From NCBI RefSeq assembly GCF_030384885.1, contig NZ_CP128613.1: 64,000 bases of DNA. One strand, 5' to 3'. The notes under the pieces were generated by a model that saw only the letters and a list, made by a program, of their open reading frames with translations, had not been told where the DNA came from and made no database searches. Made by a program: the position numbers and the translations under genes. Within the stretch, counting starts at the first letter, position 1, and the number at the start of each line of letters is the position of its first letter. Positions 1,469 to 61,795 of this stretch are shown one piece after another. The DNA comes from Escherichia coli. GTDB taxonomy: Bacteria > Pseudomonadota > Gammaproteobacteria > Enterobacterales > Enterobacteriaceae.

Positions 1469-2932
1469 ATGTCTTTAGCAAAAGATAATATATGGAAACT
1501 ATTGGCCCCACTGGTGGTGATGGGCGTCATGTTTCTTATCCCTGTCCCCGACGGTATGCCACCGCAGGCATGGCATTACTTCGCTGTGTTTGTGGCAATG
1601 ATTGTCGGCATGATCCTCGAGCCAATTCCGGCAACAGCGATCAGTTTTATTGCGGTTACTATTTGCGTTATTGGCAGTAATTACCTTCTCTTTGATGCCA
1701 AAGAATTAGCTGACCCAGCGTTTAATGCGCAAAAACAGGCGCTGAAATGGGGTCTGGCTGGTTTTTCCAGCACCACGGTATGGCTGGTATTTGGCGCATT
1801 TATTTTTGCATTAGGGTATGAAGTTTCCGGGTTAGGTCGTCGCATTGCCCTTTTCCTGGTGAAATTCATGGGCAAACGCACGCTGACGTTAGGTTATGCG
1901 ATAGTCATTATCGACATTCTGCTGGCACCGTTTACACCGTCCAACACCGCGCGTACCGGGGGTACGGTTTTTCCGGTCATTAAAAACCTGCCGCCGCTGT
2001 TTAAATCATTCCCGAACGATCCGTCCGCGCGTCGTATTGGCGGCTATTTGATGTGGATGATGGTCATTAGTACCAGTCTGAGTTCGTCCATGTTTGTCAC
2101 CGGTGCGGCACCAAACGTGCTGGGTCTGGAGTTCGTCAGCAAAATTGCCGGCATCCAGATTAGCTGGTTGCAGTGGTTCCTCTGCTTCCTGCCGGTTGGC
2201 GTTATCTTACTTATCATTGCGCCGTGGCTTTCCTACGTGCTTTACAAACCGGAAATCACACACAGTGAAGAAGTAGCAACCTGGGCGGGTGATGAACTAA
2301 AAACCATGGGTGCGCTGACACGCAGAGAGTGGACGCTGATTGGCCTTGTATTGCTCAGCTTAGGTTTGTGGGTATTTGGCAGTGAAGTCATTAATGCTAC
2401 TGCGGTAGGTCTGCTGGCAGTTTCGCTAATGCTGGCCCTGCACGTTGTGCCGTGGAAAGACATTACCCGCTATAACAGCGCATGGAACACGCTGGTCAAC
2501 CTGGCAACTTTGGTTGTGATGGCTAATGGCCTGACTCGTTCTGGCTTTATTGACTGGTTCGCCGGTACCATGAGTACGCACCTGGAAGGATTCTCACCAA
2601 ACGCAACGGTGATTGTACTGGTTCTGGTGTTCTACTTTGCGCACTACCTGTTTGCCAGCCTGTCTGCGCACACCGCAACCATGCTGCCGGTTATTCTGGC
2701 CGTCGGTAAAGGTATTCCGGGCGTACCAATGGAACAACTGTGTATCCTGCTGGTGCTGTCTATCGGTATCATGGGCTGTCTGACGCCGTATGCAACCGGT
2801 CCTGGGGTGATTATTTACGGCTGCGGCTATGTGAAATCAAAAGATTACTGGCGACTTGGTGCAATCTTCGGGGTGATTTACATCTCTATGTTGCTGTTGG
2901 TTGGCTGGCCGATTCTCGCCATGTGGAACTAA
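1469..2932 (+). CDS. citT: citrate:succinate antiporter
   Basis: 487-aa polytopic membrane protein recognised as CitT (DASS family); RBS-like GGAGAA upstream. Confidence 0.9.
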   Translation: MSLAKDNIWKLLAPLVVMGVMFLIPVPDGMPPQAWHYFAVFVAMIVGMILEPIPATAISFIAVTICVIGSNYLLFDAKELADPAFNAQKQALKWGLAGFSSTTVWLVFGAFIFALGYEVSGLGRRIALFLVKFMGKRTLTLGYAIVIIDILLAPFTPSNTARTGGTVFPVIKNLPPLFKSFPNDPSARRIGGYLMWMMVISTSLSSSMFVTGAAPNVLGLEFVSKIAGIQISWLQWFLCFLPVGVILLIIAPWLSYVLYKPEITHSEEVATWAGDELKTMGALTRREWTLIGLVLLSLGLWVFGSEVINATAVGLLAVSLMLALHVVPWKDITRYNSAWNTLVNLATLVVMANGLTRSGFIDWFAGTMSTHLEGFSPNATVIVLVLVFYFAHYLFASLSAHTATMLPVILAVGKGIPGVPMEQLCILLVLSIGIMGCLTPYATGPGVIIYGCGYVKSKDYWRLGAIFGVIYISMLLLVGWPILAMWN

Positions 2933-2962
2933 TACGTTCGCCAAACGCTGAATAAATCATCA

Positions 2963-2997
2963 CGCCCGCCAGGTAAGCCCACCTGGCGGGCTTTTTT
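2963..2997 (+). terminator. rho-independent terminator downstream of citT
   Basis: GC-rich inverted repeat cgcccgccaggt/acctggcgggc followed by a T-run (ctttttt). Confidence 0.6.
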
Positions 2998-3045
2998 ATG
3001 ATTTAATAGATAGTATTCAGTGTATGTATGAGTTCCACACCCATT

Positions 3046-3852
3046 ATGAAAGCATTCTGGCGTAACGCCGCGTTGCTCGCGGTTTCTCTGCTTCCCTTCT
3101 CTTCTGCCAACGCCGTGGCGTTGCAGGCAAAACAGTATGGCGATTTTGATCGCTATGTCCTGGCCCTCTCCTGGCAAACCGGATTTTGCCAGAGTCAACA
3201 CGATCGAAATCGTAACGAACGAGATGAATGTCGCCTGCAAACCGAAACGACCAACAAAGCTGATTTTCTGACCGTACATGGTCTATGGCCGGGATTGCCT
3301 AAATCGGTTGCGGCCCGTGGTGTTGATGAACGACGCTGGATGCGCTTTGGTTGCGCTACTCGCCCAATCCCGAATCTACCAGAGGCGCGCGCCAGCCGGA
3401 TGTGTTCATCGCCGGAAACCGGGTTATCGCTGGAAACGGCAGCTAAACTAAATGAAGTCATGCCGGGAGCTGGCGGACGTTCCTGCCTGGAACGCTACGA
3501 ATATGCCAAACACGGTGCCTGCTTTGGTTTTGATCCAGACGCATACTTCGGCACGATGGTACGCCTGAATCAAGAAATTAAAGAGAGCGAAGCCGGAAAA
3601 TTCCTTGCGGATAACTACGGTAAGACAGTGAGCCGCCGTGACTTTGACGCCGCCTTTGCCAAAAGCTGGGGAAAAGAGAACGTGAAAGCCGTTAAGCTAA
3701 CGTGCCAGGGTAACCCTGCGTATTTGACTGAAATTCAGATTTCAATCAAAGCTGACGCCATCAACGCTCCGCTTTCTGCAAACTCATTCTTGCCGCAACC
3801 ACACCCAGGCAACTGTGGCAAAACCTTTGTGATTGATAAAGCGGGTTATTAA
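3046..3852 (+). CDS. rna: periplasmic ribonuclease I (RNase T2 family)
   Basis: ORF recognised as RNase I; start chosen at MKAFWRN (signal peptide, 268 aa) rather than the upstream ATG at 3028. Confidence 0.88.
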   Translation: MKAFWRNAALLAVSLLPFSSANAVALQAKQYGDFDRYVLALSWQTGFCQSQHDRNRNERDECRLQTETTNKADFLTVHGLWPGLPKSVAARGVDERRWMRFGCATRPIPNLPEARASRMCSSPETGLSLETAAKLNEVMPGAGGRSCLERYEYAKHGACFGFDPDAYFGTMVRLNQEIKESEAGKFLADNYGKTVSRRDFDAAFAKSWGKENVKAVKLTCQGNPAYLTEIQISIKADAINAPLSANSFLPQPHPGNCGKTFVIDKAGY

Positions 3853-4000
3853 TCATCTGATTTACAAAACACGCTAATTCGTCTTCCATAAACCATGACG
3901 ATTAAGATTTATACATAATGCGCTGCATTGAGGAATTCCCTGAATGTGATGCAAATCACTTCAAAGAGTGAGCAACAGTCAGTATCATCATGTGAGTTAA

Positions 4001-4034
4001 ACCCTCGCCGCCTGACGGTGAGGGTTTTCTTTTG
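4001..4034 (+). terminator. putative intrinsic terminator in rna–rnk intergenic region
   Basis: 10-bp stem with one mismatch (accctcgccg / cggtgagggt), 5-nt loop, then a T-rich run. Confidence 0.4.
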
Positions 4035-4081
4035 GGTATGTTTATCTGCGACACTCGCAGTACCGACGACATGGAGTAAAA

Positions 4082-4492
4082 ATGTCCAGACCAACTATCA
4101 TCATTAACGACCTGGATGCCGAACGCATCGATATTCTGCTGGAGCAACCTGCCTATGCTGGTTTGCCAATCGCCGACGCGTTAAACGCAGAGTTGGATCG
4201 CGCCCAAATGTGTTCGCCAGAAGAGATGCCACACGACGTGGTGACAATGAACAGCCGGGTTAAATTCCGCAATCTTAGCGATGGCGAAGTGCGTGTGCGC
4301 ACGCTGGTGTATCCGGCTAAAATGACTGACAGCAATACTCAGCTTTCTGTTATGGCTCCGGTAGGTGCCGCACTGCTGGGGCTGCGCGTTGGCGATTCCA
4401 TTCACTGGGAACTTCCGGGCGGCGTTGCAACCCACCTTGAAGTGCTGGAACTCGAATACCAGCCAGAAGCTGCTGGCGACTACCTGCTTTAA
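4082..4492 (+). CDS. rnk: regulator of nucleoside diphosphate kinase (GreA/GreB-like)
   Basis: 136-aa ORF recognised as Rnk. Confidence 0.88.
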
Positions 4493-51181: not shown

Positions 51182-52619
51182 GCCGTTTCAGCGCCCGTTT
51201 TCGCTGGCAACCCGCCTGACCTTTTTTATCAGCCTTGCCACCATTGCAGCGTTTTTCGTCTTTGCCTGGATCATGATCCACTCGGTAAAAGTGCATTTTG
51301 CCGAGCAGGATATTAATGATTTAAAAGAGATTAGCGCCACATTCAGGCGTGTTCTTAATCATCCCGAAGAGACACAAGCCCGACGCTTAATGACGCTGGA
51401 AGATATCGTCAGTGGTTATTCCAACGTGTTGATTTCTCTGGCAGATAGCCACGGTAAAACGGTGTATCACTCCCCCGGTGCGCCGGATATCCGCGAGTTT
51501 GCACGTGATGCCATACCCGATAAAGACGCTCGGGGCGGCAAGGTGTATCTCCTTTCCGGCCCGACAATGATGATGCCAGGCCACGGTCACGGGCATATGG
51601 AACACAGCAACTGGCGGATGATTAACTTGCCGGTTGGCCCGTTGGTGGACGGCAAACCGATTTATACGCTCTACATCGCGCTGTCTATCGATTTTCATCT
51701 TCATTACATTAATGATTTGATGAATAAACTTATTATGACCGCATCGATCATCAGCATCCTGATCGTCTTTATCATGCTGTTGGCGGTACATAAAGGCCAC
51801 GCGCCAATTCGCAGCGTCAGCCGTCAAATCCAGAACATTACCTCGAAAGATCTCGACGTTCGCCTTGACCCGCAGACCGTGCCGATTGAGCTGGAACAGC
51901 TGGTACTGTCGTTCAACCATATGATCGAGCGTATTGAGGATGTCTTTACCCGCCAGTCCAATTTCTCAGCGGATATCGCTCACGAAATTCGTACGCCAAT
52001 TACGAATCTCATTACGCAAACGGAAATCGCCCTCAGCCAGTCGCGCAGCCAGAAGGAGCTGGAAGATGTGCTCTACTCTAATCTCGAAGAGCTGACGCGA
52101 ATGGCGAAAATGGTCAGCGATATGCTGTTTCTCGCTCAGGCCGATAACAACCAGTTAATCCCCGAAAAGAAAATGCTCAACCTGGCGGATGAAGTTGGCA
52201 AAGTGTTCGATTTTTTCGAGGCGTTAGCGGAAGATCGCGGCGTAGCACTACGGTTTGTTGGCGACAAATGTCAGGTTGCGGGCGATCCGCTGATGCTGCG
52301 TCGGGCGCTAAGCAACCTGCTTTCTAACGCTCTGCGTTATACGCCGCCCGGAGAGGCAATTGTAGTGCGCTGCCAGACGGTCGATCACCAGGTGCAAGTT
52401 ACCGTCGAAAACCCCGGTACGCCCATTGCGCCCGAGCATTTACCGCGTTTGTTTGACCGTTTCTACCGCGTTGATCCTTCCCGCCAGCGAAAAGGTGAAG
52501 GTAGCGGCATTGGGCTGGCGATAGTGAAATCGATTGTTGTCGCGCATAAAGGCACGGTTGCAGTAACGTCAGATGCGCGGGGAACAAGGTTTATGATCAA
52601 ACTACCGGAGAAAGGTTAA
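51171..52619 (+). CDS. cusS: copper-sensing two-component histidine kinase
   Basis: ORF recognised as CusS; start placed at ATG 51171 ([10 protein letters not shown]), overlapping cusR end; the ORF-track start at 51159 is TTG. Confidence 0.88.
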
Positions 52620-53283: not shown

Positions 53284-54534
53284 AGCCTGCCCGCTTACCT
53301 GAAGGCGCAGTCTGCGGGCAGGCACCGGATAAGTGAAGAGACTGACCAGTATGCCGGAGGCCACCGGCTGAAACAGGCCGGAAACACGCAGTATGACTAT
53401 GACGCCGCAGGCCGGATGGTCAGCCGCACCAGGCACCGTGACGGCTACCGCCCGGAAACAGAGCGGTTCCGGTGGGACAGCCGGGACCAGCTGACCGGGT
53501 ATTGCAGCGCACTGGGGGTGCAGTGGGAATACCGCCACGACGCCAGCGGCAGACGGACGGAAAAACGCTGCGACCGGAAGAAAATCCGTTTTACGTACCT
53601 GTGGGACGGCGACAGTATTGCGGAAATGCGGGAATACCGGGATGATAAACTGTACAGCGTACGGCACCTGGTGTTTAACGGCTTTGAGCTGCTGAGTCAG
53701 CAGTTCAGCCGGGAAAGGCAGCCGCATCCGTCCGTGGCCCCGCAGTGGGTGACGCGGACGAGCCATGCGGTAAGCGACCTGACAGGCCGCCCGGTGATGC
53801 TCTTTAACAGTGAAGGTAAAACCGTCTGGCGGCCGGGACAGACCAGCCTGTGGGGGCTGGCACTCAGCCTGCCCGCAGACACCGGCTACCCGGACCCGCG
53901 CGGGGAACTGGACCCGGAAGCCGACCCCGGCCTGCTGTATGCAGGACAGTGGCAGGATGCAGAATCCGGGCTGTGCTATAACCGGTTCCGGTACTACGAG
54001 CCGGAAACCGGGATGTACCTGGTGAGTGACCCCCTGGGGCTGGCCGGGGGGGAGCAGACTTACCGGTATGTGCCTAATCCATGTGGGTATGTTGATCCTT
54101 TGGGATTAGCAACGTGTCCCATAATCAGACAGCGGGTGCTTGCTAACCTCGAAGCCAGTCGGGCAGCAAGAGTTACATCAAATTTTGGTAAGCCTCTGGT
54201 TCAGGGAAATAAAACGATTGGCGATAAAGTAAGGGATATAATTGCCAAAGAGAGGGGAACCACTCTAATTGAACAAAATTATAGAGTGACAGGAGGATTA
54301 AGGCGTATTGACGTTGTTGATGGAGTAACGGGTATTGAATCTAAAGTCGGTCGAACAGGGATAACTGCCCGAGTACGGCAAGAGGTAGCCCGTGATATTA
54401 AGATTTTGAGAAGTGGGCAACTTGATCAAATTGAATGGGTGTTTACAAGAAGTCCAACTACAGGGAAGATTGGGCCAACTAAACCACTTGAAGATCTGTT
54501 AAATAAACATGGTATACCGATTATTTATCGATAA
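53284..54534 (+). pseudogene. 5'-truncated Rhs remnant: ~275 aa of Rhs core C-terminus plus a ~141-aa polymorphic C-terminal toxin domain (orphan rhs-CT)
   Basis: open frame from 53284 with YD-repeat-like residues and the terminal DPxGL(x)nDPLGL motif; C-terminal domain begins at 54109 where GC content drops; first ATG at 53416; the >1000-aa N-terminal part of a full Rhs is absent. Confidence 0.7.
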
Positions 54535-54545
54535 GGAGTGATAGT

Positions 54546-55103
54546 GTGAAACTCAAACCGATTGGTGATTTTTTAATTAATAGTGGGTTCGTGAAAAATA
54601 GTGACACTGACTTTTATAAAGTGCATGATAAGTTTGTATACTGTATAAATTTTCAAAAAAAGAGCACGGGTGATATTTTTTTTATAAACACAGGTGTTCA
54701 TCCTATATTCGAAGGTTTTTGCAATGAACTACCAACAAAAGAAATAGATTGCTACATTCGTAATCGTGTGTGTGATGGACTAAGTATATCTTTGCTGAAT
54801 TCTTTTGAAGGTGATGAATTTGTTATCAATGAGATAAAGGATAAAGCGTTTTGTTTTTTTGAATACTTTGATTCATTGAATAAAATATTCGATAGTATTC
54901 GTGTTGTCGATATTGAAGAGAGAAATATTTGCGATGAGCTAAGTAATGTAAGTAGCGTAAGATTAGCTTTGATGTGTATGAACTACCAATATGAGAAAAA
55001 AAATTTGGGACTTGCTTCAGATTTTGCGAACTATGGTCTTGCTATATCTAGAGGCCCGGTACCGAAAAAAGCATTTAAGGATATGATAAAAAAAATAGAG
55101 TGA
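54546..55103 (+). CDS. putative cognate immunity protein of the Rhs-CT toxin
   Basis: 185-aa AT-rich ORF starting with GTG 7 nt after an AGGAG RBS and 12 nt after the rhs-CT stop; typical position and composition of Rhs immunity genes; no recognisable domain. Confidence 0.5.
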   Translation: MKLKPIGDFLINSGFVKNSDTDFYKVHDKFVYCINFQKKSTGDIFFINTGVHPIFEGFCNELPTKEIDCYIRNRVCDGLSISLLNSFEGDEFVINEIKDKAFCFFEYFDSLNKIFDSIRVVDIEERNICDELSNVSSVRLALMCMNYQYEKKNLGLASDFANYGLAISRGPVPKKAFKDMIKKIE

Positions 55104-55109
55104 TATCTA

Positions 55110-55425
55110 ATCCGCTGTAATGCCAATTGTCTGTGTACAGAGAAGGTTAACGGCCTGGATGAGACAATCGTCTACACATGGGACGCTGCAGGCCGCCTGG
55201 CAGAAATCATCGCCCCGGAAGGGAAAACGCAGTACGCGTATGACAAATCCGGCAGGCTGACGGGTATCTTCAGCCCGGACGGCATATCACAGCGCACCGG
55301 CTACGACGAACGCGGGCGGGTGAATGTCGCCACGCAGGGCAGACGGGCCATTGAATACCACTACCCAGGGAAAGATCACGTAACGCTGCTTTTTTGTACT
55401 AAACAATTCGAATTTTATGTTTAAA
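55110..55425 (+). pseudogene. internal Rhs core fragment (YD-repeat segment) without start codon
   Basis: translates to ...VYTWDAAGRLAEIIAPEGKTQYAYDKSGRLTGIFSPDGISQRTGYDERGR..., i.e. Rhs YD repeats, ending in a short divergent tail; GC-rich. Confidence 0.5.
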
Positions 55426-55509
55426 AATTGAGATATTCCTCATTACCTGAAGCTGTTTTTTATTGCTTATACATGATCAAATACTCCTTACATAATTAAG
55501 GAGAACAAA

Positions 55510-56643
55510 ATGGAACTTAAAAAATTGATGGAACATATTTCTATTATCCCCGATTACAGACAAGCCTGGAAAGTGGAACATAAATTATCGGACATTCTAC
55601 TGTTGACTATTTGCGCCGTTATTTCGGGTGCAGAAGTTTGGGAAGATATAGAGGATTTTGGGGAAACACATCCCGATTTTTTGAAGCAATATGGTGATTT
55701 TGAAAATGGTATTCCTGTTCACGATACCATTGCCAGAGTTGTATCCTGTATCAGTCCTGCAAAATTTCACGAGTGCTTTATTAACTGGATGCGTGACTGC
55801 CATTCTTCAGATGATAAAGACGTCATCGCAATTGATGGAAAAACACTCCGGCATTCTTATGACAAGAGTCGCCGCAAGGGAGCGATTCATGTCATTAGTG
55901 CGTTCTCAACAATGCACAGTCTGGTCATCGGACAGATCAGGACGGATGAGAAATCCAATGAAATTACAGCTATCCCAGAACTTCTTAACATGCTGGATAT
56001 TAAAGGAAAAATCATCACAACTGATGCGATGGGTTGCCAGAAAGATATTGCAGAGAAGATACAAAAACAGGGAGGTGATTATTTATTCGCTGTAAAAGGA
56101 AACCAGGGGCAGCTAAATAAAGCCTTTGAGGAAAAATTTCCGCTGAAAGAATTAAATAATCCAGAGCATGACAGTTACGCAATGAGTGAAAAGAGTCACG
56201 GCAGAGAAGAAATCCGTCTTCATATTGTTTGCGATGTCCCTGATGAACTTATTGATTTCACGTTTGAATGGAAAGGTCTGAAGAAATTATGCGTGGCAGT
56301 CTCTTTTCGGTCAATAATAGCAGAACAAAAGAAAGAGCCAGAAATGACGGTCAGATATTATATCAGTTCTGCTGATTTAACCGCAGAGAAGTTCGCCACA
56401 GCAATCCGAAACCACTGGCACGTGGAGAATAAGCTGCACTGGCGTCTGGACGTGGTAATGAATGAAGACGACTGCAAAATAAGAAGAGGAAATGCAGCAG
56501 AATTATTTTCAGGGATACGGCACATCGCTATTAATATTTTGACGAATGATAAGGTATTCAAGGCAGGGTTAAGACGTAAGATGCGAAAAGCAGCCATGGA
56601 CAGAAACTATCTGGCGTCAGTCCTTGCTGGGAGCGGGCTTTAG
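55510..56643 (+). CDS. H-repeat-associated protein (ISAs1-family transposase)
   Basis: 377-aa ORF recognised as YhhI/YdcC/YbfD-type H-rpt protein; AAGGAGAA RBS; sits downstream of the Rhs fragments as in Rhs elements. Confidence 0.85.
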
Positions 56644-56681
56644 TGAGTAGGCCACCGGAACCTCCCCGACAGCCTCTCGCA

Positions 56682-56715
56682 GAACCGTACGTGAAACTCT
56701 CGCTTCATACGGCTC
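56682..56715 (-). ncRNA. group II intron catalytic domain V
   Basis: minus-strand sequence GAGCCGUAUGAAGCGAGAGUUUCACGUACGGUUC matches the domain V consensus (AGC triad, GUAU...ACGUAC helix) just 3' of the RT stop. Confidence 0.75.
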
Positions 56716-56718
56716 CCG

Positions 56719-58041
56719 TCAGGCAAACGCGCTTCCTGGTCCTGCTTTCCAGTGGGCAAACAACTCCGGCTTCTCTTTTGACAGCCTTTCCATTAGCTGA
56801 CACGCCTTCGTCTTTCTATACCGCAGGGTTTTATATTTCTTTCTCGCCCACGCAATCAGCGTCAGATTAATATATCTGCATACTTTCTTCATCGCTGATT
56901 TGTGGTATCTCGCGTAATAATTCAGCCACCCCGATATTATCGGATTCAGCCACTTCGCAATATCTTCGAGACTCATCTCCACCCTGCGTCTGATCCACAG
57001 TTTCCTGAGTTTTCCAATCATGCCTTTCTGCGCACGGTTACTCGCCGCCGGGCTGAAACTCGTAAAGAGGTTCCCCCGCCGGTGGTTACGTGCTCTTCGC
57101 GCTCTGAACGTATACCCCAGAAAATCAAACTGCACTGTTTCATGGTTCGCCTGTCGTTCGCTGTCTTTGCAGTAAACTATTTTCGTTTTCTCCGGATGTA
57201 ATTCCAGTCCACATTCCTGAAAACGTTTTGCCAGCTTATTCAGTAATTCCTCTGCCTGTTGTTTACTGCCACAATGAATTAATCCATCATCTGCATAACG
57301 GCACCAGGGAATTTCCGGATAATGTAACGTCAGCCATTTATCAAACACATAGTGCAGAAATAAATTCGCCAGTACCGGGCTGATGACTCCACCCTGTGGC
57401 GTACCTTTATTTCTTTCCTTCAGTGTTCCATCCGGCATCTGCACCGGCGCTGTCAGCCAGCGGCGAATAGACAGTCTTACCCATTTATCCGCACAATGTT
57501 TATCTACTGCCCTGAGTAATAAATCGTGGGGGATATTATCGAATAACCCTTTAATATCAAACTCAAGACACCAGTCGTATTGCCAGCAACGTTTTCTGGT
57601 GACTGCTATTGCATCCAGCGCTGATTTTCCATGCCGGTATCCGTATGAATCATTCAGGAAATAACGCTCCACTAATGGTTCAAACGTTACCAGCACCGTC
57701 ATCTGCGCTATTCGATCGCTTACTGTCGGTATTCCTAAAAGTCTTTTGCTGCCATCCTTCTTCGGAATTTCCACCGCACGCACTGGCGGCGGCATCCAGC
57801 TTCCCGACGATAACCTGTTCCAGATTTTGTACAGATTTCCTTTCAGATCCCGCTCAAAATCTTTCAGCGTCTGGTTATCCACTCCGGCAGCTCCGGCATT
57901 CGCCTTTATCCGCCGGTACGCTTCCACCACATGCAATTTACTGACCTGAAACGGTTTTGTCTGTTCACACACAGCCTCCTCCTGCCTACAGTTGGGCTGT
58001 GATGCAGACTGCCCGACGCTGTCCCTTCGCTCCACGTTCAT
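56719..58041 (-). CDS. group II intron-encoded reverse transcriptase/maturase
   Basis: RT motifs including GAAGVD, GTPQGGVISP and YADD; start placed at MNVERRDS (about 440 aa); the 505-aa ORF to 58236 probably over-extends into intron domains I–III. Confidence 0.82.
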   Translation of the reverse strand: MNVERRDSVGQSASQPNCRQEEAVCEQTKPFQVSKLHVVEAYRRIKANAGAAGVDNQTLKDFERDLKGNLYKIWNRLSSGSWMPPPVRAVEIPKKDGSKRLLGIPTVSDRIAQMTVLVTFEPLVERYFLNDSYGYRHGKSALDAIAVTRKRCWQYDWCLEFDIKGLFDNIPHDLLLRAVDKHCADKWVRLSIRRWLTAPVQMPDGTLKERNKGTPQGGVISPVLANLFLHYVFDKWLTLHYPEIPWCRYADDGLIHCGSKQQAEELLNKLAKRFQECGLELHPEKTKIVYCKDSERQANHETVQFDFLGYTFRARRARNHRRGNLFTSFSPAASNRAQKGMIGKLRKLWIRRRVEMSLEDIAKWLNPIISGWLNYYARYHKSAMKKVCRYINLTLIAWARKKYKTLRYRKTKACQLMERLSKEKPELFAHWKAGPGSAFA

Positions 58042-58543
58042 TACAAACGCTTCCTCACTACTACGAACAGCTCTGCCCCGGTTTCGCACATCGATACTCT
58101 CATACTCATAATTTCGGTTATTTGTATTTCTCTCTTGACATTGCGACGACCGGTTCCCGTAGTTCCTGCAAAGAGCCCGATACAGCGTCATGCCTGCTAT
58201 ACACCGGACATCATTCACGCAGCATTCGGAATTCACCCGTAAATTAATCCCGGCGGTATCACGAAACCTCCGGTTTTGATGTCACTTAGGACTAACGACG
58301 TTTCAACACAGGTTCGGGTTTACTCATCTCACTGTATCTCACATAGGATCAGATCTCGTCTGATCGTTCCCCCTGCGCTCACTACCATGGCTCTTTACCA
58401 CAGCAGCCGGGGTTGTTTGGGACCGACTTCCGACAGCAGATCCCGGTGGGCCTGCCACCATCTCTTCACAAGCTTATGCTTATTACATGCAAAACGTCCC
58501 GTTTTGCATCTTTGTGCCTACGGCACACCGTAATCTTTCCCTG

Positions 58544-59300
58544 TGTCATTAGTGCGTTCTCAACAATGCACAGTCTGGTTATCGGACAGATCAAGACGGA
58601 TGAGAAATCCAATGAAATTACAGCTATCCCTGAACTTCTTAACATGCTGGATATTAAAGGAAAAATCATCACAACTGATGCGATGGGTTGCCAGAAAGAT
58701 ATTGCAGAGAAGATACAAAAACAGGGCGGTGATTATTTATTCGCTGTAAAAGGAAATCAGGGGCGGCTTAATAAAGCCTTTGAGGAAAAATTTCCACTGA
58801 AAGAATTAAATAATCCAGAGCATGACAGTTACGCCATTAGTGAAAAGAGTCACGGCAGAGAAGAAATCCGTCTTCATATTGTTTGCGATGTCCCTGATGA
58901 ACTTATTGATTTCACGTTTGAATGGAAAGGTCTGAAGAAATTATGCGTGGCAGTCTCCTTTCGGTCAATAATAGCAGAACAAAAGAAAGAGCCAGAAATG
59001 ACGGTCAGATATTATATCAGTTCTGCTGATTTAACCGCAGAGAAGTTCGCCACAGCAATCCGAAACCACTGGCACGTGGAGAATAAGCTGCACTGGCGTC
59101 TGGACGTGGTAATGAATGAAGACGACTGCAAAATAAGAAGAGGAAATGCAGCAGAATTATTTTCAGGGATACGGCACATCGCTATTAATATTTTGACGAA
59201 TGATAAGGTATTCAAGGCAGGGTTAAGACGTAAGATGCGAAAAGCAGCCATGGACAGAAAGTATCTGGCGTCAGTCCTTGCGGGGAGCGGGCTTTCGTAA
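58544..59300 (+). pseudogene. 5'-truncated second copy of the H-repeat transposase gene
   Basis: near-identical to residues ~129-377 of the 55510-56643 ORF from [11 protein letters not shown] onward; lacks the N-terminal third. Confidence 0.8.
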
Positions 59301-59557
59301 TCTTTCCCTGCCCTGCTCACCTCCTCCAGGCACTTCCACAACATGATGACCTGATCGGTTGCCGCCTATCCTCCTCACTATGACCTTCACCTCCGCGCTT
59401 TTGCCTACATCCTGCACAATCGGCAACTTTTATAACCAGTGTAAAAATAACGTGCCGCAATAATCCTACCTATTAATGATAAAAAGCTGTCACAATTCAT
59501 AAAAAACTTTAATATACGCCACCCTAAACATAACCAGCGTTAATGTAAGGTTTTTGT

Positions 59558-61795
59558 GTGGACTGGCTTCTTGATGTTTTTGCAACCTGGCTATATGGCT
59601 TAAAAGTAATCGCGATAACGTTAGCGGTCATCATGTTCATCAGCGGGCTGGACGATTTTTTTATTGATGTCGTCTACTGGGTACGCCGCATTAAACGCAA
59701 GTTGAGTGTTTATCGCCGCTACCCGCGAATGAGTTACCGCGAACTGTATAAACCAGATGAAAAACCGTTAGCGATTATGGTTCCGGCGTGGAATGAAACG
59801 GGCGTCATCGGCAATATGGCCGAGCTGGCGGCGACCACGCTCGACTATGAAAACTATCATATCTTTGTTGGCACCTACCCCAACGACCCCGATACTCAGC
59901 GTGATGTTGACGAAGTGTGCGCTCGCTTCCCAAACGTGCATAAGGTAGTCTGCGCGCGTCCTGGCCCCACCAGCAAAGCCGACTGCCTGAACAACGTGCT
60001 GGACGCCATCACCCAGTTTGAGCGTAGCGCCAATTTCGCTTTTGCTGGTTTTATTCTGCATGACGCCGAAGACGTAATTTCACCGATGGAATTGCGTCTG
60101 TTCAACTATCTGGTCGAGCGTAAAGATCTGATTCAGATCCCGGTATACCCATTCGAACGCGAATGGACGCACTTCACCAGCATGACTTACATTGATGAGT
60201 TTTCAGAACTGCATGGCAAAGATGTTCCGGTGCGTGAAGCCCTCGCCGGACAAGTGCCCAGCGCAGGCGTCGGTACTTGTTTCAGCCGCCGCGCCGTGAC
60301 CGCACTGTTAGCTGACGGTGACGGTATTGCTTTCGACGTGCAGAGTCTTACTGAAGATTACGACATTGGTTTCCGCCTGAAAGAAAAAGGTATGACGGAA
60401 ATTTTTGTCCGTTTTCCGGTGGTGGACGAAGCCAAAGAACGCGAGCAGCGTAAATTTTTACAGCACGCGCGGACGTCAAACATGATCTGCGTGCGCGAAT
60501 ATTTCCCCGATACCTTTTCGACGGCGGTTCGACAAAAGTCTCGCTGGATCATCGGCATTGTTTTCCAGGGCTTTAAAACCCATAAATGGACCTCCAGCCT
60601 GACGCTGAACTACTTTCTCTGGCGCGACCGCAAAGGGGCAATCAGTAACTTTGTCAGCTTCCTCGCGATGCTGGTGATGATCCAGCTTTTGCTGTTACTG
60701 GCGTATGAAAGTTTGTGGCCCGATGCCTGGCATTTCCTTTCTATTTTCAGCGGCAGCACATGGTTAATGACCCTGCTGTGGCTAAACTTTGGTTTGATGG
60801 TTAACCGCATCGTGCAGCGGGTGATTTTTGTCACTGGCTACTACGGTCTGACGCAGGGGCTGCTATCTGTCCTGCGTCTTTTCTGGGGCAACCTGATTAA
60901 CTTCATGGCCAACTGGCGCGCGTTAAAACAGGTGCTTCAACACGGCGATCCACGTCGCGTCGCGTGGGATAAAACAACGCATGACTTCCCCAGCGTCACT
61001 GGCGATACCCGCTCGTTGCGCCCGTTAGGTCAAATTCTGCTGGAAAATCAGGTCATCACTGAAGAACAACTCGATACGGCACTGCGTAATCGTGTCGAAG
61101 GTCTACGCCTGGGCGGTTCAATGCTGATGCAGGGGCTGATTAGCGCCGAACAGCTGGCACAGGCACTGGCAGAGCAAAACGGCGTGGCGTGGGAGTCCAT
61201 CGATGCCTGGCAGATCCCTTCTTCGCTGATTGCCGCGATGCCGGCCTCCGTGGCGCTGCATTATGCGGTGCTACCGCTGCGTCTGGAAAATGATGAGTTA
61301 ATTGTCGGCAGTGAAGATGGTATTGACCCGGTTTCGCTGGCAGCCCTGACGCGTAAAGTTGGACGCAAAGTGCGTTACGTCATTGTTCTGCGAGGACAAA
61401 TTGTCACCGGATTACGTCACTGGTATGCACGCCGACGCGGTCACGATCCGCGGGCAATGTTGTACAATGCGGTTCAGCATCAGTGGCTCACGGAACAGCA
61501 GGCCGGTGAAATCTGGCGGCAATATGTGCCGCATCAGTTCCTGTTCGCCGAAATACTGACCACGCTCGGTCATATTAATCGTTCAGCAATTAACGTGTTG
61601 TTATTGCGCCATGAACGCAGTTCTCTGCCGCTCGGCAAGTTTTTGGTCACCGAAGGCGTTATCAGCCAGGAAACGTTGGATCGCGTCCTGACAATTCAAC
61701 GCGAATTACAAGTTTCGATGCAATCACTATTACTCAAAGTAGGTTTAAACACAGAACAGGTTGCGCAACTGGAGTCCGAAAATGAAGGAGAATAA
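59558..61795 (+). CDS. nfrB: bacteriophage N4 adsorption protein B (family-2 glycosyltransferase, c-di-GMP-binding)
   Basis: 745-aa ORF recognised as NfrB; apparent GTG start. Confidence 0.92.
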   Translation: MDWLLDVFATWLYGLKVIAITLAVIMFISGLDDFFIDVVYWVRRIKRKLSVYRRYPRMSYRELYKPDEKPLAIMVPAWNETGVIGNMAELAATTLDYENYHIFVGTYPNDPDTQRDVDEVCARFPNVHKVVCARPGPTSKADCLNNVLDAITQFERSANFAFAGFILHDAEDVISPMELRLFNYLVERKDLIQIPVYPFEREWTHFTSMTYIDEFSELHGKDVPVREALAGQVPSAGVGTCFSRRAVTALLADGDGIAFDVQSLTEDYDIGFRLKEKGMTEIFVRFPVVDEAKEREQRKFLQHARTSNMICVREYFPDTFSTAVRQKSRWIIGIVFQGFKTHKWTSSLTLNYFLWRDRKGAISNFVSFLAMLVMIQLLLLLAYESLWPDAWHFLSIFSGSTWLMTLLWLNFGLMVNRIVQRVIFVTGYYGLTQGLLSVLRLFWGNLINFMANWRALKQVLQHGDPRRVAWDKTTHDFPSVTGDTRSLRPLGQILLENQVITEEQLDTALRNRVEGLRLGGSMLMQGLISAEQLAQALAEQNGVAWESIDAWQIPSSLIAAMPASVALHYAVLPLRLENDELIVGSEDGIDPVSLAALTRKVGRKVRYVIVLRGQIVTGLRHWYARRRGHDPRAMLYNAVQHQWLTEQQAGEIWRQYVPHQFLFAEILTTLGHINRSAINVLLLRHERSSLPLGKFLVTEGVISQETLDRVLTIQRELQVSMQSLLLKVGLNTEQVAQLESENEGE

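Follow-up and report, generated by a model that had tools for sequence, protein, structure and literature searches.

A tip-less rhs core stub in the cusS-nfrB island of Escherichia coli ends flush with the left terminus of an H-repeat

Introduction

How does a short internal piece of an rhs core come to lie between the immunity gene of an orphan toxin module and an H-repeat (H-rpt), and does it still do anything there? The question is raised by a GC-rich segment in the window, a 64,000-nucleotide stretch of Escherichia coli DNA (NZ_CP128613.1) that was analyzed as a whole. The locus concerned, nfrB-cusS, is known as 'position 4' and represents the sole clade IV rhs locus of E. coli (Jackson et al. 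2009, BMC Genomics 10:584; PMC2935791). Three tips are given for this locus (b0570-b0569) in the E. coli W genome paper (PMC3032704). According to the displacement model of Jackson et al., each immunity gene is followed by a partial core of arbitrary length that remains after cassettes have recombined, and tip-less core fragments at this locus are noted in the legend to Fig. 5 of that study (PMC2935791). The dissociated tips of Jackson et al. are the orphan rhs-CT/rhsI modules of Poole et al. 2011 (PMC3150448).

A preliminary description of the segment, based on the letters of the window, had recognized Rhs YD repeats outside their usual context. It proposed that the segment records an additional rearrangement or an H-rpt-associated deletion within an ancestral rhs gene, and called for an alignment to full-length rhs genes and a comparison of the junctions with the H-rpt ends.

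Results and Discussion

A decayed Rhs island between cusS and nfrB

The window comprises the E. coli region from cusCFBA-cusRS to nfrBA, and an accessory island is located between cusS, which ends at 52619, and nfrB, which starts at 59558. From 53296 to 60500 the sequence is 100% identical to strain 2013C-4282 (NZ_CP027579.1), and identity amounts to 99.95% upstream of that. At the junction 53296/53297, 8,947 bp of 2013C-4282 are missing from the window. The missing DNA begins 67 bp before the vgrG start codon and ends inside an orphan rhs gene; its loss removed vgrG, a DcrB-related gene, the main rhs gene encoding 1601 residues together with its immunity gene, and the 5' part of the orphan rhs. 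Only ~2 bp of microhomology (TA) are present at this deletion junction, which was found in none of 5,426 complete genomes. As vgrG and the main rhs are deleted, the locus retains an orphan toxin/immunity pair and no delivery-competent Rhs.

The orphan rhs, whose 5' end is thus missing relative to 2013C-4282, consists of the 3' part of a core and a C-terminal toxin tip (53297-54534, plus strand; ORF 53416-54534). BLASTN aligns window positions 53296-54080 with nt 3598-4382 of the main rhs of locus L006 at 95.7% identity. This core part of ~785 bp corresponds to about residues 1200-1460 of the reference Rhs and includes the DPLGL motif, while the tip is unclassified. The DUF4304 immunity gene of the module follows on the same strand (54546-55103; Pfam PF14137, E=2.7e-9; RefSeq WP_000769434.1). 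The true orphan module of the window is 53297-55103.

Behind the immunity stop codon, a spacer of 8 nt (TATCTAAT, 55104-55111, plus strand) leads to the point where alignments detect renewed homology to the rhs core. This homology, subsequently designated the stub, covers 55112-55365 (254 bp) on the plus strand. It is followed by H-rpt copy 1, which is interrupted by a group II intron, and by a second, truncated H-rpt.

The stub is an internal piece of a clade IV core

The segment indeed encodes Rhs YD repeats, an observation that is confirmed and far above chance. Frame 1 from 55110 translates as IRCNANCLCTEKVNGLDETIVYTWDAAGRLAEIIAPEGKTQYAYDKSGRLTGIFSPDGISQRTGYDERGRVNVATQGRRAIEYHYPGKDHVTLLFCTKQFEFYV, ending at a stop codon, and the peptide matches the Pfam family RHS_repeat (PF05593) in two stretches with E=2.7e-13 and 50.4 bits (cut-off 22). 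The GC content is ~0.60 at 55150-55374, whereas the immunity gene has 0.28-0.37 and the left end of the H-rpt 0.27-0.31. BLASTN detected matches of the 254-bp stub, at 80-92% DNA identity, in the rhs cores of 2296 among 5426 complete E. coli genomes; over 254 bp, its identity to rhs cores is 88-92%. No second copy of this core segment is present in the 64-kb window.

Alignment to full-length rhs genes, as proposed in the preliminary description, located the stub to residues 952-1036 (nt 2856-3110) of the 1601-residue main Rhs of 2013C-4282, with 88.6% identity. In keeping with clade IV rhs, the stub lies between cusS and nfrB and is closest to the vgrG-linked rhs of that locus; it maps to the main rhs genes at the same locus of 2013C-4282, CP53, S3, Sakai and D7. 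Within the main Rhs of 2013C-4282 the core ends with DPLGL at residues 1444-1448, i.e. the stub stops ~410 residues before the core end and therefore represents an internal core piece rather than a 3'-core-plus-CT orphan. The preliminary description was thus right in separating it from the usual orphan arrangement: it has no DPxGL core end, no toxin tip and no immunity gene of its own.

Comparison with orphan rhs-CT/rhsI modules (PMC3150448) leads to the same distinction. Like such modules, the stub resides in the array, where it directly follows an immunity gene, and opens with a partial core whose length is arbitrary. Unlike them, it lacks the 3' end of the core with the PxxxxDPxGL motif as well as a tip, and what follows residue 1036 is the left end of an H-rpt and its transposase ORF instead of a toxin tip and an immunity gene. 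It accordingly fails every defining feature of an orphan module.

The right edge of the stub coincides with the H-rpt left terminus

The homology to rhs ends at 55365, and the left inverted repeat of the H-rpt, CAGGGAAAGATCACG, starts at 55366 (IRL 55366-55380). At this junction the sequence ATACCACTACC is directly joined to CAGGGAAAGATCA, so that the truncated gene ends exactly at an IS terminus, as in IS-associated deletions. The right junction thus matches the H-rpt end to the base, which is what the preliminary description had asked about; the left junction corresponds to an old cassette boundary (see below). The same description had assigned a short unrelated tail to the reading frame. 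This tail (55366-55423, plus strand) turned out to be 58 nt of the H-rpt left end, identified through its inverted-repeat pairing, that are read in the rhs frame up to a TAA stop codon.

The element itself begins 144 bp upstream of its transposase ORF (55510-56643). Its left part, positions 1-1276, occupies 55366-56641 on the plus strand and encodes the Pfam domains DDE_Tnp_1_assoc and DDE_Tnp_1. The right terminal inverted repeat of copy 1, CGTAATCTTTCCCTG (58529-58543, plus strand), was recognized as a member of a direct-repeat family and as the inverted partner of the left repeat; it ends at 58543 and, in the second copy, at 59310. When 55366-56641 and 58529-58543 are joined, a sequence of 1291 bp results, which aligns from position 1 to 1291 with H-rptB and H-rptE of K-12 at ~97% identity. 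By its length of 1291 bp without the intron, its CAGGGAAAGATCACG/CGTAATCTTTCCCTG inverted repeats and its DDE transposase matches, copy 1 is an H-rpt/ISEc1 element of the ISAs1 family. The same left-terminal sequence also opens the H-rpt copies of K-12 RhsB, RhsC and RhsE and of loci L002-L008. The stub could in principle have been the 5' end of an intact downstream gene; this case is excluded, as the downstream gene is the H-rpt transposase. No rhs core was detected on the far side of the H-rpts.

The flush junction at 55365/55366 is directly visible in the sequence, and stub and H-rpt occur together in database searches. Both facts would be expected if the rhs piece were a passenger or an integral part of the H-rpt that is carried along with it. 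However, it is non-core DNA that borders the left ends of the H-rpts at K-12 RhsB, RhsC and RhsE and in O157 Sakai, the defining inverted repeat begins only after the stub, and the stub shares homology with the clade IV core resident at the very same locus. The K-12 and Sakai flanks refute this explanation, to which we attach next to no credence.

Comparison with the H-rpts of K-12 RhsB, RhsC and RhsE reveals the same length of 1291 bp, the same inverted repeats, a DDE transposase of 378 residues and a position at the distal end of Rhs. The left ends of the K-12 elements abut AT-rich non-core DNA, and none of those at RhsB, RhsC and RhsE abuts a core fragment. In contrast, the H-rpt left end at cusS-nfrB abuts the rhs core, and does so at several positions. 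BLASTN also detected no homology to the rhs core in the K-12 pseudogene yrhC, which is located between yhhH and H-rptB.

The H-rpt left end is flush with different sequences in different strains

Five junction types were found at the cusS-nfrB locus. In the window and in 2013C-4282, the only complete genome of this type, the H-rpt left end is flush with the stub at core residue 1036. In the strain 222 type (L004; 112 complete genomes) it is flush with the same stub, which is 26 bp shorter and ends at residue 1028. The CP53 type (L002; 39 complete genomes) shows the H-rpt flush with a truncated main rhs at about residue 1134, the S3 and D7 type (L003, L008; 379 complete genomes) with a core piece comprising residues 526-635, and the O157 Sakai type (L007; 317 complete genomes) with non-core DNA after an orphan. 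The flank on the right side of the H-rpts is the same in the window, L002, L003, L007 and L008 and differs in the strain 222 type.

An IS end that is joined to many different truncated neighbors is the signature of IS-associated deletion. One H-rpt end flush with differing sequences across strains therefore supports H-rpt-associated truncation, and the deletion within an ancestral rhs gene that had been suggested in the preliminary description gains support from both the position of the right edge and the variable endpoints. As in IS-associated deletions in general, the IS end is flush with a truncated gene, and the endpoints vary while the IS and mostly also the other flank stay fixed; unlike in the general case, the link to the H-rpt is made by pattern only. 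Target-site duplications of H-rpts are found neither here nor in K-12, so that a missing duplication is not diagnostic of a deletion. According to the E. coli W genome paper, transposition of an H-rpt has never been observed (PMC3032704).

The 26-bp difference between the two stub alleles was also examined as a slippage deletion, but microhomology at this site is only 3 bp (CAG). In the 112-genome allele both H-rpt flanks and the left-end subtype of the H-rpt differ from those in the window, and its junction may consequently be an independent event instead of a derivative. As to these subtypes, the 12-15 nt that follow immediately inward of the H-rpt left inverted repeat (55380-55395 in the window) fall into two main groups among the window, L002-L008 and K-12, with minor variants within each: one is ACGTAACGCTGC-like, the other ATCAAAAGTTCA/ATCCAAAGTACA-like. 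The H-rpts of K-12 include members of both groups, and the two stub alleles adjoin different groups.

Strain D7 additionally carries a tip-less core fragment (L008 8870-9235) that comprises residues 943-1032, i.e. nearly the same segment, with other junctions. It is preceded by a core scrap of residues 1367-1398 and followed by unrelated DNA encoding a hypothetical protein of 160 residues. Since no H-rpt adjoins this fragment, such stubs are not in every case made by an H-rpt.

The left edge is an old cassette boundary

At the left junction (55111/55112) core homology resumes at residue 952, 8 nt past the immunity stop codon. The identical arrangement of immunity stop codon, 8 nt and core is found in 112 other complete genomes as a diverged allele with ~88% identity, and the order in these genomes is always toxin tip, DUF4304 gene, stub, H-rpt. 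P0003 (L012), considered as a third E. coli allele, was dismissed because its stub and junction are those of the 112-genome allele. Between the two alleles the immunity gene shows a dS of 0.23 and a dN/dS of 0.29, and dS is 0.15 for the core end plus tip, while nfrB and its neighbors differ by only ~3% between the two allele types. The occurrence of the left join in the diverged allele indicates that the left edge is old. Moreover, both stub alleles have decay changes in common, Y>C and D>N, which convert YRYD to IRCN, and so the stub was already a pseudogene attached to the cassette before the alleles diverged. The preliminary interpretation, which is supported overall, has to be qualified in that the left junction is not specific to this strain but is an old cassette boundary common to 112 further genomes.

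Among ~100,000 species-representative genomes, neither the left junction (AGAGTGATAYCTAATCCGSTGTAAT) nor the 3' end of the immunity gene was found, and hence no donor context emerged outside E. coli. The closest non-E. coli homologues of the DUF4304 protein, with 44-47% protein identity, are present in Pectobacterium within a poly-immunity region, which is uninformative as regards the stub.

In strain 222 (L004 8108-8493) and in L005 (6108-6493), a piece of rhs derived from the PAAR region (residues 240-339) directly adjoins what is left of an H-rpt left end (86 bp). This pair is located upstream of the tip/DUF4304/stub cassette in both loci, so that the cassette is bracketed by H-rpt sequences there.

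The two parts of the stub differ in divergence

The stub is a mosaic. Its decayed 5' third (55112-55200, plus strand) is 76-80% identical to every live core as well as to the other stub allele, a divergence close to the neutral expectation given the pS of 0.13-0.20 in adjacent genes. The 3' two-thirds (55201-55365, plus strand), which reach to core residue 1036, are well kept: 55201-55339 is 92-98% identical to live cores, including 97.8% to the orphan-1 core of 2013C-4282. The contrast between the 5' and the 3' part is significant both between the stub alleles (Fisher p=0.0015) and against the orphan-1 core (p=6e-6). The simplest reading, resting on ~250 bp, would be an exchange of sequence between the 3' part and live cores, be it through gene conversion or because the original crossover point was located here. 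Most likely, the 3' two-thirds would have been kept close to live cores through such recombination or gene conversion.

Could the stub then be a maintained recombination substrate, acting as the downstream homology arm of a mobile rhs-CT/immunity/stub cassette? Such an arm would allow whole tip arrays to swap by double crossover or to collapse by recombination between main core and stub, and the exchange would keep the 3' part similar to live cores, as the identity values of its two parts suggest. Furthermore, the stub comes after the toxin tip and DUF4304 module in 113 of the 113 complete genomes carrying the module, and the truncated main rhs fused to the H-rpt (L002; 39 genomes) resembles the expected products of recombination between main core and stub. 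However, linkage and common descent at a single locus explain this co-occurrence equally well, no exchange event is seen directly, and the window has no homologous partner left. The absence of junction and immunity 3' end from the ~100,000 species-representative genomes likewise gives no sign of movement between species. We therefore regard this role as unlikely. Its stronger form, in which the stub is not debris at all but a conserved homology arm of the rhs-CT/immunity cassette that is kept core-like by gene conversion, appears improbable to us. If true, tip-less stubs beside H-rpts would be sites where Rhs toxin arrays are exchanged or collapse, and the H-rpt transposase would possibly take part in making the joins.

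The stub shows no sign of being a gene

The frame of the stub is open from 55104 to 55423 (104 codons). It contains no ATG and a single in-frame GTG at 55320, in agreement with the earlier remark that the segment has no start codon. The first YD motif is destroyed, as YRYDADG has become IRCNANC, and RefSeq annotates the stub of 2013C-4282 as an incomplete pseudogene. Neither a start codon nor a conserved intact frame, the features by which an expressed gene is recognized, is present, and a scan for promoters and terminators around the stub yielded only weak consensus matches near background.

Translation would nevertheless be conceivable by read-through of the immunity TGA, which would append the stub to the immunity protein, or in the form of a small functional YD-repeat peptide. 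The immunity ORF (54546-55103) and the stub ORF share their frame and are separated only by the TGA and two codons (TAT CTA; 55101-55112), and 104 codons are open. Yet a shared frame is expected in one of three cases, and nothing else speaks for read-through. The lone GTG at 55320 is internal, the stop codon of the ORF lies within the IS, non-synonymous changes predominate among the substitutions of the 5' part, and the two alleles differ in length by 26 bp. Together with the destroyed YD motif and the pseudogene mark, these features make a translated stub highly improbable. Judged by its missing start codon and destroyed first YD motif, the stub is not expressed as a protein, and given its decayed 5' end, the length difference between the alleles and the RefSeq annotation, it most likely has no function.

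Two probable events at two edges

We consider it very probable that the stub is a non-coding relic, namely the tip-less stub of a clade IV rhs core at the distal end of a decayed toxin array, and that its two edges were created by two events. The left edge would be the downstream boundary of an old orphan cassette consisting of rhs-CT, DUF4304 immunity gene and core stub. It may be the leftover of C-terminal displacement, in which a core-plus-tip-plus-immunity cassette recombines into a resident rhs; a partial core directly after an immunity gene fits the displacement model of Jackson et al. in this respect. The right edge would result from a truncation at the H-rpt left inverted repeat, which removed the remaining core, its tip and its immunity gene. 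Two routes may be envisaged: an adjacent deletion mediated by the transposase, or insertion of an H-rpt followed by recombination between two H-rpt copies. The present sequences would fit either route and more than one order of events.

In the window, where main rhs and vgrG are deleted, the stub is left without a homologous partner and is thus inert. In strains possessing the main rhs, recombination between the main core and the stub could delete the tip array and leave the rhs fused to the H-rpt, as is the arrangement in CP53.

As a relic, the stub is ordinary: it belongs to a known kind and carries an annotation already, and the phenomenon has been described before (PMC2935791). By its description in the Fig. 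5 legend, the fragment of Jackson et al. agrees with the stub in locus, in clade and in being a core fragment without a tip downstream of tips. That paper (PMC2935791) does not mention an H-rpt or IS junction, which in the present case defines the right edge of the stub. The literature consulted contained no statement that the H-rpt terminus forms the exact end of tip-less fragments at this locus, at several positions. H-rpt-flush endpoints at several core positions add a minor descriptive detail and do not amount to a new kind of element. Although of little weight alone, the stub helps to reconstruct the decay of the Rhs/type VI effector island in this lineage. In >500 complete genomes, the rhs core of the cusS-nfrB locus ends directly at the H-rpt left end, and it does so at several positions. 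Such joins suggest that the H-rpt has recurrently truncated Rhs, a link that is undiscussed in the displacement literature.

The second H-rpt and the group II intron

In the second H-rpt the left 524 bp are gone, and its position 525 follows immediately upon the right inverted repeat of copy 1 (58529-59310). The remainder of this 5'-truncated copy (58544-59310, plus strand; positions 525-1291) is 98.3% identical to the reconstructed H-rpt in BLASTN, and its right flank is turned towards nfrB. In this combination of tandem and truncated copies joined end-to-internal, the island resembles K-12 RhsC, where C1, truncated at position 381, leads to the left end of C2, and the right end of C2 leads to position 21 of C3. 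Between the right end of the H-rpts and the K-12-like cusS-nfrB intergenic sequence lies a relatively GC-rich (~0.57), island-specific stretch of ~100 bp (59311-59415), part of which is missing from the strain 222 type.

Unlike the K-12 H-rpts, copy 1 carries a group II intron, located on the minus strand (56642-58528; Rfam RF00029 at 56642-56717 and RF01999 at 58342-58459). The intron measures 1,887 nt and contains an RT/maturase ORF (56719-58236), which is ltrA in the annotation of 2013C-4282. Only the last 15 bp of copy 1 lie beyond its insertion site, the H-rpt right inverted repeat serves as its 5' exon, and its insertion cuts the transposase ORF by one codon (377 vs 378 residues). At a coverage of at least 80%, this intron is present in 82 complete E. 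coli genomes.
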